A stretch of DNA of 56,660 bases, from positions 62,001 to 118,660 of the forward strand of contig CAUYUJ010000075.1 in the NCBI GenBank assembly GCA_963575745.1, written 5' to 3'. The notes beneath the pieces were generated by a model that worked only from the letters and a program-made list of their open reading frames with translations, ran no database searches and was not told the DNA's origin. The DNA comes from Prorocentrum cordatum. Lineage: Eukaryota. Positions within the stretch are counted from its first letter, which is position 1; the number at the start of each line of letters is the position of its first letter. The translations under genes were made by a program, and so were the position numbers. This document shows positions 35,625 through 50,186 of this stretch, piece after piece.

Positions 35625-38600
35625 ATCTACTCCCTCCCCAGGCCCTGGCCCTCCTCTCCATCGCGCCCCCCACTCGTCGTCTACGTCTAGGTGAACCCGG
35701 CCGTGGCGACGAGGGCGCGACGACACCCTTTGGGCCCCCTAGGAGGCCCCCCCAAAACACCCTCCTTCCCGCCCGCCTCTGCCTCTTCTCCTGCTGGATA
35801 AACTTTTCGACCATGGCGACGTTTTGCTCGCCCTCGACCATGCTCCTCCCGATCCCCCCGACGTAGCCCTCAAACCACTCCGTGCTCAGGTCCGCTGCGG
35901 GCTCCACAGGAATCTCAGAGCCGTCGTCGTCGCTGACACTCGCATCGCATGTCGCGGTCGGGGGGCCCGTGGGGGTATACCGGGTACTCGGGGCCTGTTG
36001 CTCGTTGATAAATTGATCAACCATGGCGACGTTTTCTTCGCCCTCGACCATGTTCCTCCCGATCCCCCCGACATAACCTTTAAGCCACTCCGTGCTCGGC
36101 TCCACTACATCAAACATGGAGCCGTCGTCGTCGTCGTTAAGTGGCGACCCCACCTACAGAGGGGGCGCGAGGAAGGAGTGGGGGGCCCCGCCTCCTCCTC
36201 CTCCTCCTCCTCCTCCTCCTCCCTCCCTCCGCCGGCTCCTGGTACCCCTCCTCCCTTCTCATTCCTCCCAACTCCTTCCTTTGCCTTCTCCTCCTCCTCC
36301 TCCTCCTCCTCCTCCTCCTCCTCCCCCTCCTCCTCCTCCTCATCCTCCTCATCCTCCTCCTCCTCCTCCTCCGGCCTGCCTCCGCAGCCAGCCGCTTCTT
36401 GCGCGTGGCCATGGCTGCGCTGGCGCCCACCTTCTTGTTCGCGTCGGCGGAGGCCCCCGCAGCAGCCGCCCCCTGCTGTGCCCTCGCCCTGCGCTTCGCC
36501 TCCAGCTCAACGTTGGTGTGGAACCGCTTCAGCACAGCGAACTCCGCGCCATCCGGGGCCCCTGGGATGACGTTCTGAGGGATCATCAGGTAATGCACTT
36601 CCAAGGAGATCTTCACGAATGCATGCGTGAAGTTATCCATGAGCTCGGGGTTCTCAGTGTGGACAAAGCCTCTGACAACATGTTTTCTCCCCCGCTCTCC
36701 CCGACCCCCAGGGCGGTGGAACCATGAGGCAGGGGATGGGGCCATCGAGGGTGGAGGGAGGAAGGAACACGGATGAGGGATGGGAGATGGGGTGGAGGAT
36801 TTGAATCAGGGCTCACCCACTCATGGGCCACCTCCCTCGCCGCCCCCTCCCCTCCTTTATTTTCCTCTCCCTTTTCATCCTGCCTCCTTCCTCCCACCCC
36901 CCACCTCGACCCTCCTCCTCGGACTCGTCCTCCTCCCTTTTCCCTTCATCCTCGCGGGCCTGTGCGGTCCAGCCAGAGCTCGATGAGCTCCGAGTTGACC
37001 TTGGCGTGGCTGTCCGTCTCCTTGTCGGTCACCGCCGCGCTCCAGGCAGGCACGCACACGTCCGACGAGGACGTCATGACCGACGCGCCCGTGATGAAGT
37101 ACTCCACGCCGTCGAACAAGGTGCACGCCGGGAAGAAGTGCTTGTTATTGGTCGGCTTGGCCATCGTGACTGGCCCGATGAAGTATACCTTCATCACAGG
37201 GTTGTCACCGACTTTGCACAGCAAGGCCGGGTTCGGCCTCGTGACGTCCACCGCCAGGTAGCCCTTGTAGCTTTCAGATGTGCGGGGGAAGAGGCTCCAC
37301 ACGACCGCGTTCAGGTTAGCTTCGACCAACTTCAGAAAGACCGCGTCGACGTTGATCCCCAACCGCTTCGCCATCTCAGACTCCTTGATGCCGGCCTCGG
37401 CCATGCCGTGCTCCCAGAGCTCCTTGATGGTCATCTGCGGCTTCGCGGGCACCTGCTTCTCGATGCTCTGGCCCTGCGGGATCGCTGCCACCGGCTCCGC
37501 CAAGCTAGCCAGATGCTTGCGACCCTCGTCGCTCAGCTCGTGTTTGAGGCGCCTCGCGGAGAGCGGCAAGTCCGCGTTGACTACCTGGGCGGCGCACTGC
37601 CCCACAGCGTAACCACGGGCCAGCTTGCGCCATAGGCCCGTCCAGTCCGTAACACCGCGCAGCAACATGTCCACCTCGCAAATGACATGAATTTCGGTTG
37701 GCTGCGCGCCGCGCATGGTTGCCATGATCCGAATGTGGTCGAGCTCGCTGCCGTTATCGTCCTCGTAGAGCTTTGTGTCAGGGAGGGTCTTCATCACGTT
37801 CTCGATGGAGTCGTGTAAGAGAGACCAAGCGTACTTGGTGCGCAAGCTGATGAAGGTATCGATCTGCGACGCCGAATCGAACACCTGCGCCCAAGCGTCT
37901 GGAAGAGTGCAAGTGGCCTGCACGTGCTTGGCCAGGTTGAGGAGCTGAGTCATCACGTCGCAAGAGCACTGCGTGTGCTCGGACAGCATCTCGTAGATGT
38001 AGTGAATCATGTTGTTCAAGAGGACCTTTCCCTCGGTGGACTCCTTCAGCATGTCGTCGACAACGTGGAGGAGCATATTGGAGTAGACGGGGTGCAAGCG
38101 CACGTCCACGAGCGTCTCCACCTTGTTATTCACCTTGTACTCGGAGATCTGCATCGGCATCCCCGGGCTCGCCACAAGGGCTTCCTCCAACCCCACCTGC
38201 CCGCCCGTGGCCACGGAAGAGTTGCTCATCTCCTCGAGGAGAGCAGCGGCGTCGAACATGTTCGATTGGCCCGAGCTGGCGACCGTCAGCGAAGCGGTGA
38301 GGCACTTGATGATGGCCGCCTGAACGGCCCTGCGCTGCACCGACCACGAATCCATCTGCTTCCCATCAAACGTGATCTTGGACATCCAGCCGAACTCCAG
38401 GCACACGTGAGCGTGGTCGGACTTGATCTTCAGGAAACTGTTATCGACGTTCGCCTTGGATTCCTCGGAGGGCGAACGAACTCACAGCACTCTCCTTCCT
38501 CTTTTCCCAATAGTCCTCCGCTGTCCACTGTCCTCATCCTCATCATCCTCAGCCGTTACCTCCCCCTCCTCTCCCTCTTCCTCCTCCTCCTCCTCCTCTT

Positions 38601-40106
38601 CCCTCCTCCTCCTCCTCCTCCTCTTCCTCCTCCTCCTCCTCCTCCTCCTCCGCTCCCACCTCCCCACCGCCCTCCCTTTCTCTCCATCATCTCCCCCTTA
38701 TTGGACCCCGCCCTGCCCTATCCTGTCCTCCTCCTGCCGGGGTTGGGCTGGGTGACGCGCGCGCCCCCCGGGTCCGCGCTCAGCGCAGTGTAGCAGACAA
38801 GCTTCTTGAACTGATCGAACGTCCAATTGATGCCCCCGATGATGTCGTCACCCCACCAACGCTCGCGCGATGGCAGCGCGACATGACCATCCGCACCATC
38901 CGCCACCGAGGCAGAGGCCCCGGACACGAGCAGCTCGAAGCCCTCGACGGCGCCCAGGCTTTCCACGCCAGTTGGGAGTGGCGCGGCGGCGGGTGCAGCC
39001 GCCCCTGCCTTGGCTTTGGCCTTTTTCATCGCACTCTTCTTCGGGGGGGCCTCCTTGGCCTTATTCGCGGCCTTGTACACCTTGCTCTTCTGTCCGATCG
39101 GGAACTTCAAGAACTCGATTTTCTCTTGCGCCGCAGAGTTGAACCGATCGAATATCCATACGGGCGCGCGCTCCCCGGGAACCTCCGACAAAGGGACCAT
39201 GAATTTCATGGATTCCTTCACCAGCACAGCGATGTCCTCCTTCGCCATGTAGCCATCGAACTTGTTGGCGATGAAACTCGTGGCCTGGCGGGGGCACTGC
39301 CCCTCTCTCCCATCCGCCGAGCCTGGGCCCCGCAAGCGAACAAACCGAGCACTGGCCCCCTGGGGGGCCACCCGGCCCGGGCCCCCAACCCGATGGGCCC
39401 CTCGAGCCCCAGGGCTCGAGAACACAGAGTTCACCGAGGTCCCGAAGTTTTGCGACCCGCGGCGAGCGAACGAACGAACCGAATCGAAGAACCGTCGGCG
39501 GGCCCAAGCGCATGGGGAGGGGAGGGGGGCCCCCGAGCCCCGTCGGGCCATGTACATCAGGCTGATCACGTTGTCCGTGGAAAGGCGCTGGTTCATGAAC
39601 TCGCAGCGGGCCCCGAAATATTCGAACAGCTCCTGGGTGATGCCCAGCTTGCCCCACCAGTTCAACAGCGTGCTGCACTGCTCGTACTGGTTATTGCTGC
39701 GCAGCTTCCCGGCGAAGTGCGAGTTGACGAAAGCCCAGACCTTTGCGGTGTAGCCCGGGCTGCGTGTGTTCAGATTGGGGAGGTGCATCACTTTCCAAGC
39801 TTCCCACGCTGCCTGCGGGGGGGAGGGGGGAGGGGAGTGAGGGAGTAAGGGGGGGGGAAAGGAGGGGGCTCCCAGGAAAGGATGAGGAGGTCCCTCTCCC
39901 CGCTCGCGCACGCCGCAGGTCGAAGCCCCGAGCGCGCGCTCCAGCGAGCACGCAGGCGCGGCCGGCCGATTCTTCGGAGCAGGAGCGGGGGGAATTTGTT
40001 TGATCAGAGAAGGGCGGAGGGAGAGAGGTCCACCCCAGACTTAATACGGGGGCGCTCCGAGGCAAGAGAAGGGGAGAGGCTCGAGGGAGAGGGAAAGAGA
40101 GAGAGA

Positions 40107-44439: not shown

Positions 44440-45262
44440 CTACGCGTCGGAGTCAACAACCACCACCATCGTGCCCGTCATGGCCTTGTAGCGCTTGCGG
44501 CGATCCGCCTCCTCGTCCGCGCGCCTGAGGCGGCGGGGGGGTGGCCAAGCAGATGAGAGTGGCCGAAGCAACGCGCTGGCAGCCAACAAGCCGACAGGTA
44601 TATATGTGCTGACGCGAGGGCCCCATGACGCACTAAAGAAATACATCATCAGATAAGGATGGCGGGGAGGGGTCGGTGGATGGCGAACGCTGGAGGCGGG
44701 GTCGGGATGGGGAGGAAGTGGGAGGGGGGCTTGCAGCAGGTCGCAGCGATTTGGGCAGAAAAGAGACATCCACCACCTCACAAGAAGAGACCAAGAGCAT
44801 GGGATCACTGTTGGCTAAGAGCGAAGGAGTAGCGAGTCTGAGCGCGCCTCAAGACACGCCCGATGCGCGACACGCCCTGGTCCATCCTCGTCACCTGCGT
44901 GGCCGCGAATAGGATCAGCGCCCCGGGGACTGGCACGCACTGCGAGTTCCCGGCCTGGCCGAAGATGGAGCACGACCTCGCCACTTCAAAAGGGGGAGGA
45001 GGAGGAGGAGGAGGAGGAGGAGGAGGACGAGGAGGAGGAGGAGCAGGAGGAGGAGGAGGAGGAGGAGCAGCAGCAGGAGGACGAGGAGGAGGAGGAGGAG
45101 GAGGAGGAGGAGAAGGAGGAGGGGAGGGGAGGAGGATGGAGGAGGAGGAGAGGAGGAGGAGGAGGAGGAGGAGGGAGGTGGAGGAGGGAGGAGGGAGGAG
45201 GGAGGAGGGAGTGAGGGAGGGGAGAAGGGAGGAAGGGGGAGAGGGAGGAGGGAGGAGAGGAG

Positions 45263-45304
<42 letters not shown>

Positions 45305-48300
45305 GAGGAGGAGGAGGAGGAGGAGGAGGGGGAGGCGCATGCTAGTGCCTGCGCTCGCCCAAGCCGCCGGCCCGCTCGAAGTTGAAGCTCGTGGTCGGGC
45401 GCGCGAGGACCTCCTCCATCACCGGGAACCCTTGAGTCAACAAGCACTCCATTGGCAGCAGCCACCGTGATGCATGCGGGCGCATGTCGCCCCAGTAGTA
45501 CCCGACGTTCTTGATGAGCGTCTGCATGATGTCGGTGTAGCCGTAGGACCCGCGCCCCTTTACGAGCGTCTGGTATAAGGAGAATATGCCGCCAGGGAAC
45601 GAGTCCTGGTAGCTCTGCAGGTTCGCGTGCTCAACCTCCGTGAGGGCTAGCTCCCACGACTCCGCATTATGGATGTCCAGGGCTGGGGCCTTCCCCGCCT
45701 CCGCGAGGATCGCGTGCCTGGACTTCTTCCGAACTGCAGACTTCTCGAGCGCATCCTTGACCACGGCATCGGAGGATACGAAGAAGGACTTCCAAGTGAA
45801 TCCCACAACCCTGTGGAAACGCTTCACGAAATCAGAGAGCGGGCTGATCACTGCCAGAGTCTTCACGCGGTGGGTCAGGACCAGCCACTTCCTCTCGCGG
45901 CTCACAGGCAGGCCGTAGTTGGACGACGTATCGATGTGCTGGTCGATGTAGTAGAGACCACGTTGTTGCCCTGCGTCGCCCAGGTACTCAGCCAGCAAGC
46001 TGGCAGGGAATTGAATCACATTCTCCACCACTATGATCGGCTCCTGCAGTAAGAGACGCAAGCCAAGCCACGCCAGCATGGCCAGCGCCGTATCCCCGCC
46101 CTCGCGCCCATGCGAGCCGATCGCAGCAAAGTCGATGCAGGGGATTCCTGAGAAGTTAATCTTTGCCATTTTGATCTCGCACATCTTGCCGTGCCTCACG
46201 CACTCTGCGCAATTGGTGACAGCTTTGAACTGCTTCACAATCGGGCCCAACAACTTGTGGGCCTGATCTGTAGCCTGCTTGCAGTGGGCCACGACGCCTG
46301 TGGCCAACAACTGCGGGTGGAAGAAGTCACAGATATCCTTGAAGACGCATGAATCTTCATTGGGCATGGTGAGCAACTCTGCCTGAGCCTGTGGGTCAAT
46401 CTCGATGTGGTGCAGAGTAGGGGGCTTACGAAAGCAGAGACCAGGAACCCTACTCTGGAACTCGTGCGCGAGGTCGTTGCGAGCAACTCCCGGGGCGTCG
46501 ATGCCAGAAAATGCCGTGCTCATGCTCAGGTCCTCGAACTTGTGCGCCAGCTCTGTGAGGTACCTCCTCTCGCTCGAGATTGAGTTCAGCTGCAACTGGT
46601 CCTGAGGGGCCGGCTGGGCGGGGGGAGGATGGGGGAACAGGAGGAGGAGGAGGAGGAGGAGGCCTCCAAGACGCTCTCAGAGCGAAAAGTCTGCAAAAGC
46701 TTTGATGGTTGACCCCTGTCGGTCGTCGTCGTCGTCGTCGTGACGACGACGACCGACGACGGAGACGACGACACACGAACGACGACCGACGACGACGACG
46801 AGTCGTCGTCGTCGTCGTAGTCGTCGTCGTCGCGCGCCCGGAGGGTCCGCCATCATCTTGTCCAGGAAGAACTTGGGCCACTCGAGGGCATCCTTAAGGG
46901 ACGAGACGACTGGGACCCCGCCGCGACGGTGCTGGTACCGCTGCGACGGGTGCACCCACTGCTGCTGCTGCTGCTGCTGCTGCTGCGGCGGCGCCTTCCG
47001 CCGCGGCTCAGGGCGAGCGCGGCGAGGGCGCGGCGGCTCCGGGGCCTTGGCCATGGCCGCGGCGCCCCCCACAGCGGCGGCCCCACCTGGTGCGAGACGC
47101 ATGGGCGGCCCAGCAGGCTGCGGGCACCCTGGCAAAGGTGGGCCGCGCAAGAAATCGTCGAACGACTGCCCCTTGGTCACAGGAAGGTCAGGAAGGTCTG
47201 CAGCGGCGGCCCCGCCCGGGGCGAGCTGCTGAGGCGGCTGAGGCGGCCCAGCAGGCGTCTGCAGCCCACTTGCCGTCTCTCCCTCGGTGCAGGGCCTCGG
47301 AGACGGGCCACCAGGGGCGTCGTCGCCAGCAGCCCCGATCTCGAACAACGCAGGCCCTTGCTGCGGCGGGGGCGTGGGCCGCGTGGCCGGGCCAGCAGGA
47401 CTCGGGCTCTTACGCGCACATGGCAGCTGCGGCTGCGGGCCCGGCTGCGGCAGCTCGGCCGAGGCTCCCAGTCGCCGCAGGCGCGGAGACCTCAGGCGAG
47501 ATCTCAAGGCCTCGGCCCCCTCGGCCGCCTCATCATCTTCAATGAACAGCCCATGCATCATCTGAGCCCCCGCGTCGCCAACGTCGTCGTCGCCAGCCCT
47601 CAACTCGGCCCTTATCAGGGGCGTCAACGCGGCGGCCTCGGGCGCGGTCAGGGTCAGGCCGCGGCCGTTGTCGCCCTCCGCGCTGCCAAAGAGCTCGCTG
47701 CTGATTTGTTGCAGCGGCGTGTCAAGCTCGCCCGGGACAGTGTCGCCGTCATCATCTTGATCACCGCTGCCAGCCTCCAATCTGGCTTTCTTGATTGGAC
47801 TCGCAGTGACGTCGGTGATGCGGCTCTCGCCACGGACGAGGCGCGCTGCGGCCCCAGCAGCGGTCACTTCCACCTGGAACATGTGCAGAAAGCCTAGACC
47901 TCCCAATCTCTCTCCTGCTTCCACACTCCACCCTCATATCTCCGCCTACTTACTCCACCTACTCCCCCTTCCGCCATCCCCACCCCCTAACCCGCCCTCC
48001 CCTCGGTGATGCTCCCTTTTGCGCCCCAGACCTTAGGGTCTGCGCCCGCCGCCGCCAGGCTCGGAAACTCGGGCCCCGACGACGACGCGGCCAAGCCCGA
48101 GAAGGACGGCTGCGCCTGCTGTAGCTGGACAGGCGCCGCCCCGGCGTCGCTGGCTGCGGGGGGCGTTGCCGCCGCCGCCGCCGCCGCTGCCGCTGCCGCC
48201 TCCGCCGCCTCCTGCCCGCCAGTCTTCTCATCCTTATTCCCCCCTGGCTCGCTCGACTTACCCTGCTCTTCTTGGACCGCCAGCCCTTCCTCAGCAGCTG

Positions 48301-49954
48301 CCTCCCATGAGGGGCGCAAGTCCAGAGTTTGGGCGCCCAGGCTGTGGACGTCGGCGGGCTCCTCTTCTGCCTTGGAGCCCCCGCTAGCCGCCGCGTTATC
48401 GGCAGCGGCATTCGCCTCGACACCTGAGGCCAAGGCGGCACTCGCCTCCACCTCCTGGCCGGCACCAACGGCGCCAGCGCCAGCAGCTCCTGCGACCTGG
48501 CCGCCAGCACCACCCGGAGGAGCAGACTGGGAGCGCTGCGAGGGAGGCGCTAGGTCTGGGCCCTCACGCCCAGGCGGCTGCTGCTGCTGGGCCTCCTCGG
48601 CCGCCCTTGCCGCCGCGCTGCTGCCAGCGCTGCGACGCCGTCCCCGCGCCCTGCCCTGGCCCTGGGCGTCGTCGTCGTCGTCGTCGACGGCCTGCCTGCC
48701 CCAGGACGGGCGTTGCTGACGGACGTTGTCCGGTGGCACCGCTGGGTTGGTAAGGGCGCTAGACGCTGTGATGTACTCACTGTTCAGATTTGGAATGTCG
48801 ACCCAAACTATGCGCCCCCCCTTCAGCATGTAAAGGGGCTCGATGGGCTCCACATCTGCGAACTCCCAGTAGTAGATAGGCTGCACCTTGTCCTCATCAC
48901 TGATGCGACCCTTAAAGAATACATCAGCGAGCTCATCCCAAGACGTGCAGTGTTTGGCGTAATAATCGTTGAAGTCGCCCACTGGGATGGCCCCCTCATC
49001 GACGATGTGACCGCGCGCGATGCCCTTCAAGCAATGACTCTCGGCCCCGGGGACTTCCTCATGCGGCACCTCAGGGGGCGCGCATTCCTAAAGGCCCTTA
49101 GAGCAGTGGCGCTACCCCGCAAAGGATCTATCGGGCCCCAATTTGGGATACGCGGCTAACTAACTAACTGAGCTCGACGAGGGCTGAAACGGCAAGGACG
49201 CCGCGGCAAAGCCAATTTGGGAATTCAAGGCCTTCGTCCTCCTCGTCCTCACTCCTCCACTCCTCCACCTCCTCATCCTCATTAATCATTCTCCTCTCCA
49301 CTCCTCCCCCTCCTCCTCCTTCTCACCCACCTTCCTCCTCCTCCACCTCCGCTTCCTCCGCCCCCCATCCGTCCTCCGTCGGCTCGCCTGACAGAGGAAG
49401 ATGTAGACCCATCCTGGGAAGTAGTTCTTGCTCTGCGGTTTGAGGAAGCCCTTTGGCAAGCCCTTCTGGCGCATCTCCCACACCTTGCGCGGGGTTGGCC
49501 CGCCCCCCGCTGACCTCCACGTGACTTCCCCCCGGGGTGTCGTTACAGGGCGAGCGGCGATTTAAGAACTTAACACATTCGGGGTGGTGAATGGGGCCCA
49601 GTGTTACCACGGGTACAATGGCTGAGATCTAACCCTCAACATGCCAGCATTGCAAGAAGGGACAAGGCGGGGAAAGTTGAAAGTCGAAGGCGCCCCCCTG
49701 GAGGACTCCAGCACTGCGAACAAATCGACGCCACTAGCCTTCTGAACCGACCCCCCGCCGCGCAGACGCGCCTTCACGAATCCCTCGGGGGTCCTCTCGA
49801 CGAAGCGCTTGCCGAACTTAGGCCTAAGGATGAGGCCTTTGGCGGGCTGGTCGTCTGCTAGGTCGATGAGCGGCACTGGGGCTGGCAGCTCGGAGGGCGG
49901 GCCATTGCCCTTTCCAGCTCCCTTTCCAAAGGACAGCCTCGTCTGCCTGACCAT
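44440..49954 (-). CDS. Multi-exon ASCH-domain + C5-cytosine DNA methyltransferase (~1,270 aa). Exons: 49772-49954, 49388-49483, 48032-49069, 46848-47873, 45349-46601, 44848-44976, 44440-44524
   Basis: Exons join in frame across GC-AG, GT-AG and one GA-AG intron, all with G|G borders. C5-MTase motifs occur in order: I STAFSGID, II IEID, III FKDI, IV SGIPCIDF, VI ENV, VIII SRERKWLV, IX RWLLPMECLLTQGFP, X AGNSQ (motif X appears only after splicing 45349 to 44976). The N-terminus KGLILRP..GFVKVWEMR..YYWEFADVEPIEP..GGRIVWVDI matches the ASCH signature. The exon 4 donor is the least certain. Confidence 0.85.
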
Positions 49955-50150
49955 GGCCCGAACGCAAAGAAAGGTTAGCGCCGAAACGTAACCTGGGATC
50001 TGCTCGAAGTCGGGGCGTTTCGGCGGTTGGCAGGGTGATTTGATTTGGGGACAGACACTGCAGGGGGCAAAGGAGGAGGGGAGGAGGAGGGGGGAGAGGG
50101 GGAGAGGAGGAGGAGAGGGGGAGGAGGGGGGAGAGGAGGAGGAGGAGGAG

Positions 50151-50186
<36 letters not shown>

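Follow-up and report, generated by a model that had tools for sequence, protein, structure and literature searches.

Can a single dinoflagellate gene carry both a domain that reads marks on nucleic acids and the enzyme that writes 5-methylcytosine (5mC)? The question is raised by a locus of Prorocentrum cordatum lying within a 56,660-nucleotide stretch of contig CAUYUJ010000075.1 (assembly GCA_963575745.1, positions 62,001 to 118,660 of the forward strand); this whole stretch is called the window hereafter, and all coordinates are counted within it. In dinoflagellates, the DNA is heavily modified: it contains 5mC and 5-hydroxymethyluracil (5hmU), the latter replacing much of the thymine, and it is not packaged in nucleosomes. 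On the minus strand, from 49954 to 44805, a chain of open reading frames (ORFs) had been described in an initial annotation as an ASCH “reader” domain fused to a C5-cytosine methyltransferase. We find six supported exons there. Exons 4 to 6 are predicted, on solid grounds, to specify a C5-cytosine methyltransferase that has intact catalytic motifs and belongs to a lineage-specific family; exons 1 to 3, directly upstream on the same strand, probably belong to ASCH in the wide sense; as to whether both halves form one gene of six exons encoding a protein of ~1240 residues, our reading of the sequence leaves the matter evenly balanced.

The features of the locus are as follows; the five ORFs of exons 1 to 5 join in frame, and the predicted spliced product amounts to 61 + 32 + 331 + 342 + 474 = 1240 residues.

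49954-49772, minus strand: exon 1, 61 codons from the ATG at 49954-49952; a GC donor comes next; the last ~23 codons are the start of the ASCH-like domain (KGLILRPKFGKRFVERTPEGFVK)
49484-49771, minus strand: intron 1, 288 nt, GC...AG/G, with two in-frame stops and a flat GC content by codon position
49483-49388, minus strand: exon 2, 32 codons, second part of the ASCH-like domain (VWEMRQKG...GWVYIFLCQ); a GC donor comes next
49025-49387, minus strand: intron 2, 363 nt, GC...AG/G, with abundant GGA-type repeats and four in-frame stops
49024-48032, minus strand: exon 3, 331 codons, with a GT donor right after 48032
48788-49024, minus strand: codons 1-79 of exon 3, carrying the C-terminal half of the ASCH-like domain (GIARGHIVDEG...YYWEFADVEPIEPLYMLKGGRIVWVDIP)
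48032-48787, minus strand: remainder of exon 3, ~250 low-complexity codons rich in Ala, Gly, Glu and Gln, open in the ASCH frame
47874-48031, minus strand: putative intron 3, or spacer between two genes, 158 nt, GT...pyrimidine tract...CAG/G
47873-46848, minus strand: exon 4, 342 codons, a low-complexity stretch and then ~120 family-conserved codons before the methyltransferase core (...VSSLKDALEWPKFFLDKMMA); GA donor
46602-46847, minus strand: intron 4, 246 nt, GA...AG/G, with GAC and CCT repeats
46601-45349, minus strand: exon 5, C5-methyltransferase core; a GC donor comes next
46514-46488, minus strand: motif I (AFSGIDAPG), in exon 5
46142-46137, minus strand: motif IV, PC (GIPCIDF), in exon 5
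46025-46017, minus strand: motif VI, ENV (VVENV), in exon 5
45899-45891, minus strand: motif VIII, RxR (SRERK), in exon 5, which also holds TLIKN
44977-45348, minus strand: intron 5, 372 nt, GC...AG/G, nearly all a CCT trinucleotide array (AGG on the plus strand), with an alternative junction pair 45353/44983
44976-44808, minus strand: exon 6, motif X (QAGNS, 44957-44943) and C-terminal tail, with the stop TGA at 44807-44805
44440-44526, minus strand: exon 7 of the initial annotation, without homologue support

The methyltransferase half gives the firmest footing. Among seven ORFs scanned, that of exon 5 gives the sole Pfam match, to PF00145 (DNA_methylase), which it passes at 25.1 bits for a cut-off of 22, its residues 175-418 corresponding to profile positions 66-290 of 324. 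The motifs are shared with eight relatives. When seven family sequences are aligned, invariant or near-invariant positions comprise FSGI..P of motif I, the motif IV catalytic Cys, ENV, RxR and TLIKN, and no frameshift lies inside the exons. The claims that the catalytic motifs are intact and that motif X sits in an exon of its own are both borne out, with motif I, PC, ENV and RxR in exon 5 and GNS in exon 6. Using a family profile built from 10 relatives, the window sequence being left out, exon 5 alone scores 396.7 bits and exon 4 alone 15.8 bits (E 1.6e-6); spliced together they yield a single continuous match of 427.1 bits, while exons 5 and 6 yield another of 437.8 bits (434.6 bits with the alternative pair 45353/44983). 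As each of these two joints adds 30-41 bits, introns 4 and 5 are supported by comparison. The exon 4 region is detected by the profile only, its BLASTP comparison with the relative P0009 not being significant. The exon 6 ORF, for its part, aligns in BLASTP with the C-termini of P0009 (E 9e-11) and of a second relative, P0003 (E 2e-7), the latter alignment stopping within one residue of the P0003 end. Since the exon 6 frame thus reaches its own stop in register with homologue C-termini, the seventh of the exons first proposed is not needed, and 44440-44526 is most likely 3′ untranslated or non-genic sequence. Residue spacing after splicing, counted by hand, is close to that of the homologues, from the conserved Trp to motif I (37 vs. 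36 residues) as well as from FNF to GNS (24-25 vs. 25).

Between motifs I and IV lies an insertion of ~115 residues. Its cysteines C85, C134 and C141 (numbered on the exon 5 translation, of which residues 85-141 correspond to window positions 46347-46179) are invariant in seven family members, with the consensus A.CLRHG..C, and this cysteine-bearing insertion may be a metal-binding element specific to the dinoflagellate family.

To which class does this enzyme belong? Database searches returned eight relatives of near length and a longer one, the closest named being P. cordatum proteins at 40-41% identity; PF00145 is passed by five of the eight relatives scanned. Nine loci of the family were found in metagenome contigs, among which the short ones (L001, L002, L004 and L009) have ORFs without an N-terminal domain, and the 16 pattern matches obtained in viral contigs left none confirmed. 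Against solved structures, the best match of the family profile is M.HhaI, a bacterial type II C5-methyltransferase (E 1.3e-5), followed by DNMT2-type enzymes, DNMT1 being at E 0.43. The GFPCQ, ENV and RxR motifs of M.HhaI align with the PC, ENV and RxR of the family; however, the match spans motifs IV-VIII only, and the dinoflagellate family differs by its motif I-IV insertion and by the conserved region upstream of its core. PF00145, the family profile and the M.HhaI alignment all agree with the C5-methyltransferase identity given at the outset. DNA cytosine C5 would be the expected substrate, which we word conditionally because DNMT2-type tRNA methyltransferases are likewise within reach of the family profile (E 8e-4 to 2e-3).

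By Pfam, the accessory domains of the eukaryotic DNMT classes (RFD/BAH/CXXC, PWWP/ADD, SNF2) were found neither in the window ORFs nor in the relatives scanned, and SRA was not found in the window ORFs scanned. This is in line with what is described, in part, for dinoflagellates: the repertoire given by de Mendoza et al. (2018, PMC5890265) comprises Dnmt5, Dnmt6, Dnmt2 and retrotransposon-borne Dnmts, most dinoflagellate DNMTs being said there to carry no additional known domain, and the section of Hoguin et al. (2023, PMC9998398) on DNMT5c mentions a long unannotated N-terminus. Like the enzymes treated in those accounts, the one encoded in the window is a divergent, lineage-specific C5-methyltransferase whose long N-terminal region is of low complexity and which has no Pfam-known chromatin domain, and its gene has, as is the case for that repertoire, several exons with dinoflagellate splice sites. 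It may differ from them by an extra domain, ASCH, where the published ones have, in the portion of PMC5890265 concerned, mostly none. The motifs of the family were absent from the supplementary files of PMC9998398 that were searched (files 13-23 being outside the scope). A retrotransposon-borne Dnmt of the SymbioLINE-Dnmt or SymbioDIRS-Dnmt3 type, as outlined for Symbiodinium in PMC5890265, was considered and rejected: introns are present, and none of 27 long high-entropy ORFs elsewhere in the window matches any Pfam family, so the absence of a reverse transcriptase, endonuclease or recombinase match among them argues, together with the introns, against such an origin.

Assigning the N-terminal half was a harder task. 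It had been called ASCH at first sight, and this identity stands only by one route: standard libraries, Pfam included, gave nothing, and it is the profile of a particular subfamily that detects it. The starting set consisted of weak, divergent matches to the Pfam ASCH family (PF04266) from Enterobacterales genomes. Among eight comparators, the sole standout was the locus L126, whose Smith-Waterman score against the spliced window N-terminus is 59, for 30.0 +/- 4.9 with shuffles, 1 in 1000 of which scored as high. L126 has relatives in 20 records of Vibrio phages and in 39 of plasmids, many of these relatives being annotated “ASCH domain-containing protein”, and the PF04266 cut-off is passed by 9 of the 11 subfamily members tested. 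A subfamily profile was built from 16 sequences, namely 14 of these phage/plasmid relatives, L126 and L143. As a hidden Markov model (HMM), it matches the spliced window N-terminus at 16.0 bits (E 4.7e-7, single target), the best of 500 shuffles reaching 6.3 bits and the reversed sequence giving no match; with hhalign, the same profile against this N-terminus gives a probability of 81.8% (E 1.1e-5), and 40 shuffles give at most 1.1%.

The match is made of two colinear segments, HMM positions 11-35 on residues 39-68, over the exon 1/exon 2 joint, and positions 59-122 on residues 100-172, in exon 3. As a composition control, we scored the 1031 stop-to-stop ORFs of the window of at least 30 residues: the two best are the exon 3 ORF (10.3 bits) and the exon 2 ORF (3.7 bits, 49289-49561), which are adjacent, co-oriented and in the correct order. 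Splicing raises the score, with 4.8 bits for exons 1 and 2 joined vs. -1.8 for exon 1 alone and 1.4 for exon 2 alone, and with 16.2 bits for the full splice vs. 12.4 for the read-through; a 100-codon slice from the exon 3 start reaches 14.0 bits on its own (E 1.9e-6). The GLILRP...GFVK/VWEMR signature does straddle the GC-AG intron between exons 1 and 2, as reported from the first inspection. It is the counterpart of the N-terminal GLI(I/L)...K.WEMR of the phage/plasmid subfamily (motif GLII..PW...GEKTWEMRS...GAVIWV.L); the C-terminal motif W..(D)V.P(I/L).P..Y..K.G.(V/I)(I/V)WV(D/E/N/K)(I/L) is shared as well, and the order and spacing of the two motifs are the same.

Several points nevertheless limit the support for the ASCH assignment and have to be put in the balance. 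The signal comes mostly from exon 3 (14 of the 16 bits). The subfamily was picked after the resemblance had been seen among eight comparators, for which a correction of about 10-20-fold leaves E near 1e-5. When queried directly with P0013, the read-through of exons 1-3 with X at six in-frame stops, Pfam returned no family, ASCH PF04266 included, at E up to 10, and a single-sequence AlphaFold2 model of P0013, for which no alignment was used, has a mean predicted local distance difference test (pLDDT) score of 34.4 (34.5 for the N-terminus of P0004, a relative discussed below), too low to be of use for the PUA-like five-stranded beta-barrel expected of ASCH. P0013 and the separate ORFs likewise had no match in PHROGs, NCBIfam, PADLOC and the PDB sequences. 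When a 122-residue piece of the exon 3 ORF was compared by phmmer with 1.84 billion representatives, the sole matches were the piece itself and two repeat proteins; tblastn of the exon 3 part against phages gave three weak matches (E 2-5), and in a protein atlas it scored 0.87 with an ASCH cluster, which we take as a lead only. The sole annotated phage match of the exon 3 part, a Toprim-like protein, was dismissed as a chance match.

Other ASCH groups do not reach the locus. A profile of the YqfB/EGEGD type was made from 30 sequences, E. coli YqfB and 29 of 30 proteobacterial loci (L112 was dropped for an internal stop); it scores -2.2 bits on the window N-terminus and -1.2 bits on that of P0004, both within shuffle range, with hhalign at 0.2% and 0.4%, respectively. 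Three other divergent ASCH groups, as well as 17 divergent sequences pooled, gave noise (L141, below the cut-off and with stops, was dropped), and the long ASCH-containing open frames of six bacterial loci showed no second Pfam domain.

The subfamily that does match occurs in marine Vibrio phages, with the “ASCH domain protein” of phages 1.122.A and 340E47.2 as examples, and on plasmids, among others those of Marinobacter, Paenibacillus and Clostridioides; on Piscirickettsia plasmids, it makes up the N-terminal part of proteins annotated as DruA. Its members differ from the window gene in being mostly stand-alone proteins of 110-160 residues, or DruA-fused, whereas the window copy is split by two introns and has divergent middle strands. 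No methyltransferase was found within 5 kb of a subfamily member in the two neighbourhoods examined. Four loci of the subfamily, L155 (Piscirickettsia plasmid), L159 (Paenibacillus plasmid pSC2), L145 and L156, have several defence-like contexts: the N-terminus of Druantia DruA, a DUF262 protein with an MjaI-family restriction endonuclease, a helicase-related protein and an AAA ATPase. Such contexts fit a role of the subfamily in sensing the state of DNA.

Are the gaps between the exons genuine introns? All acceptors are AG followed by G. In the portion of the P. cordatum genome paper that tabulates splice sites, donors are GT for 24.7%, GC for 51.4% and GA for 23.8%, and acceptors are AGG for 79.7%, the column being read as that of P. 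cordatum (PMC10666404). GC and GA donors and AGG acceptors being common in that table, introns that look “non-canonical” are ordinary for the lineage. The description of the gene as hidden by non-canonical introns is, therefore, half right: the lineage norm deprives the introns of their oddity, and yet the database models at the locus are two fragments only. The first, P0001 (341 residues, window 45345-46367), is an ATG-to-stop ORF that covers the methyltransferase without motifs I and X; the second, P0010 (284 residues, ~48350-49282), begins within intron 2 and has a single GT-AG intron of 81 nt. This fragmentation looks like the product of a gene caller that disallows GC or GA donors; gene models limited to GT-AG introns fragment such genes.

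Base composition follows the proposed structure. The difference in GC content between third and second codon positions (GC3-GC2) is 0.30 in exon 1, 0.50 in exon 2, 0.37 in exons 1 and 2 with the domain part of exon 3, and 0.38 in exon 5, for 0.03-0.13 in introns 1-4; the exons show a strong coding periodicity, the pattern being flat for gaps 1, 3 and 4. In the low-complexity part of exon 3, the ASCH frame has no stop, vs. 1, 9, 4, 1 and 5 in the five other frames, and GC2 is the lowest codon position there; GC3-GC2 is weak at 0.11, a value equalled or exceeded by 9.8% of background segments. The exons had also been described as in phase with one another; this holds for the first four junctions, all of phase 0, and fails for the exon 5/exon 6 junction, which is of phase 2 (45349/44976) or, with 45353/44983, of phase 1.

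The gaps have a repetitive character of their own. Trinucleotide arrays dominate three of them, namely gap 2 (GGA-type), gap 4 (GAC) and gap 5 (AGG/CCT), where TRF counts 113 copies of AGG at 44991-45335. Gap lengths of 288, 363, 246 and 372 nt are all multiples of three, gap 3 being the sole exception among the five. These observations suggest that repeats expanding within two former ORFs gave rise to the introns or colonised them.

The main point to settle is what happens at gap 3. We consider splicing of intron 3 (48031-47874), which would join both halves, on the following grounds. A GT donor at 48031 and a pyrimidine-tract CAG/G acceptor at 47874 give a phase-0 joint between exons 3 and 4. 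The ASCH domain is followed by ~250 stop-free codons, and there are no more than 104 nt between the ASCH-frame stop and the following ATG of the exon 4 frame; for comparison, the mean intergenic distance is 26 kb in the closest sequenced relative, as tabulated in the part of PMC10666404 whose first column is read as P. cordatum. A globular N-terminal domain and the methyltransferase also coexist in one ORF of the relative P0004, on a contig of 2491 nt.

Among the relatives inspected, P0004 is the one with an N-terminal globular domain. The nearest protein atlas clusters of its residues 1-154, at 0.94-0.95, are phage proteins, one of them (0.94) having ASCH in 16% of its members, a lead that counts for the fusion. 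Compared with the ASCH subfamily, this domain gives 2.8 bits and 0.8% with hhalign, which counts among the points against; the window and P0004 N-termini have a Smith-Waterman score of 28, for 26.5 +/- 4.5 with shuffles (318 of 1000 as high), and 0.3% with hhalign. Searches for relatives of the P0004 N-terminus found only itself in the protein database, none in genome contigs and no phage match by tblastn.

The strongest alternative is that of two co-oriented genes, an ASCH protein made of exons 1-3 with a disordered tail ending at the stop 47989-47987, and a separate methyltransferase beginning at ATG 47882 (MFQVEV...) or translated from an mRNA trans-spliced at the AG of 47875-47874; the two would then be a reader/writer pair, perhaps acquired or transcribed together. 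We give this reading appreciable weight while holding it to be somewhat improbable. What speaks for it is what burdens the fusion. With 818 codons, exons 4-6 alone would already make a protein of the size that the closest relatives have at full length (P0014-P0016, 817-849 residues), and each of these relatives has an initiator Met of its own and no ASCH. In gap 3, an ATG in the exon 4 frame (47882-47880) sits 9 nt before exon 4, and the ASCH-frame stop lies inside the gap, 45 nt beyond the proposed donor. Exons 1-3 are in one reading frame and exons 4-6 in another, and the frame switches at gap 3 alone, the one gap of a length not divisible by three; two ancestral ORFs would account for such a pattern. 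By inspection, no ASCH-like N-terminus was seen in P0002, P0003, P0006-P0009, P0014-P0019 or the ORFs of L001, L002 and L004/L009; the ASCH exons, compared by tblastn with all nine metagenome loci, reached a best E of 0.41, and no orthologue carrying both parts was found in the protein-database and metagenome-contig searches. One has to keep in mind, too, that dinoflagellates have one-directional gene arrays whose polycistrons are thought, according to the part of PMC10666404 that deals with them, to be resolved by spliced-leader trans-splicing.

On the other side, two genes would require the 104-nt spacer to hold both a 3′ end and a trans-splice site, which is little when set against the 26 kb mean of that first column, and they leave a good GT...CAG/G intron that joins both frames exactly to be accounted for. 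By eye, gap 3 is purine-rich like intron 2. A low-complexity tail of 250 codons would also be odd on a stand-alone ASCH protein, and it resembles the N-terminal linkers of the methyltransferase family.

A decaying or non-functional locus, in which stop-bearing trinucleotide expansions broke former ORFs so that the “introns” are insertions and no full-length protein is made, appears highly improbable to us: four of the five gap lengths are multiples of three, the gaps are largely trinucleotide arrays such as the AGG one, gap 4 holds one in-frame stop and gap 5 abuts the TAG (45344-45342) that ends the exon 5 frame according to the ORF list, permissive GT/GC/GA donors make in-frame “splice sites” easy to find, and the introns are far shorter and the exons far longer than the averages of the PMC10666404 table in its first column, read as P. 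cordatum; but the catalytic motifs are all intact in exons without frameshifts, coding periodicity separates these exons from the flat gaps 1, 3 and 4, and each gap ends with AG/G and removes exactly the sequence absent from homologues, as the residue spacings indicate.

The surroundings of the gene offer a few further observations. Downstream, on the minus strand, are two long high-complexity open frames without Pfam match, 36949-38481 (511 codons) and 38721-40040 (440 codons), which may be a further unannotated gene or genes. A block of simple repeats at 50062-50185, purine/pyrimidine-skewed (AGG and CGA arrays on the plus strand), lies ~110-230 nt ahead of the start codon (49954), and the CAG that follows it could be a spliced-leader acceptor. 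A search for spliced-leader relics, using a 15-mer with up to three mismatches, gave 2 matches for 1.57 expected, none near the gene.

How would a six-exon fusion compare with the reader-writer systems already known? In the case of UHRF1 and DNMT1, a PUA-like barrel, the SRA domain of UHRF1, reads a base mark and a C5-methyltransferase writes 5mC, the two acting in trans. By analogy, this pair is a possible functional counterpart of the window gene, with the differences that SRA and ASCH are separate families of the PUA-like superfamily and that UHRF1 and DNMT1 are separate proteins. ASCH itself is presented, in the relevant passages of PMC4738411 and PMC7641849, as a PUA-like barrel for which binding to nucleic acids and to modified bases is predicted. 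The same passages describe prokaryotic cases in which ASCH is fused to N6-adenine methyltransferases and type I restriction-modification systems or shares an operon with them (Iyer, Zhang and Aravind 2016, PMC4738411; Bell et al. 2020, PMC7641849), and the likeness is clear, as ASCH is coupled there to a DNA methyltransferase and those authors proposed discrimination of modified bases; in contrast, the partners they report are N6-adenine enzymes or HsdS in bacteria and archaea, when the partner here is predicted to be a C5-cytosine enzyme in a eukaryote. Full-text literature searches, bioRxiv supplements being outside their scope, found no paper describing ASCH with a C5-methyltransferase, in agreement with the remark, made at the first inspection, that the architecture was not known to have been described.

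If the fusion is taken as a working model, the protein would consist of the ASCH domain, a disordered linker of ~550 residues, the conserved pre-catalytic region and a complete C5-methyltransferase domain, in this order. The ASCH barrel would bind nucleic acid, as suggested by analogy with the families treated in the cited parts of PMC4738411 and PMC7641849, possibly at a modified base or on hemimethylated DNA, the candidate ligands being 5hmU, hemimethylated CG and RNA; whether tethered to the methyltransferase or co-expressed with it, it could direct, position or gate the deposition of 5mC. A more daring version, which we consider doubtful, is that a phage/plasmid-type ASCH was captured and spliced onto a lineage-specific C5-methyltransferase, producing a single-chain reader-writer that would deposit 5mC only where ASCH recognises another mark, be it 5hmU or a hemimethylated site. 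Should the mark be a hemimethylated site, maintenance methylation would be possible without a UHRF1-like partner.

As dinoflagellate DNMTs are, in the part of de Mendoza et al. that describes them (PMC5890265), mostly devoid of targeting domains, how methylation is directed in these organisms is an open question. An ASCH module coupled to a C5-methyltransferase, whether physically or genetically, would give a concrete and testable targeting mechanism, and it would stand as a clear example of a eukaryotic epigenetic enzyme that recruited a nucleic-acid reader of phage/plasmid type. If the fusion is true, the locus would extend the reader-writer theme with a phage/plasmid-type module; if it is not, it would hold an unusually tight pair of reader and writer genes.

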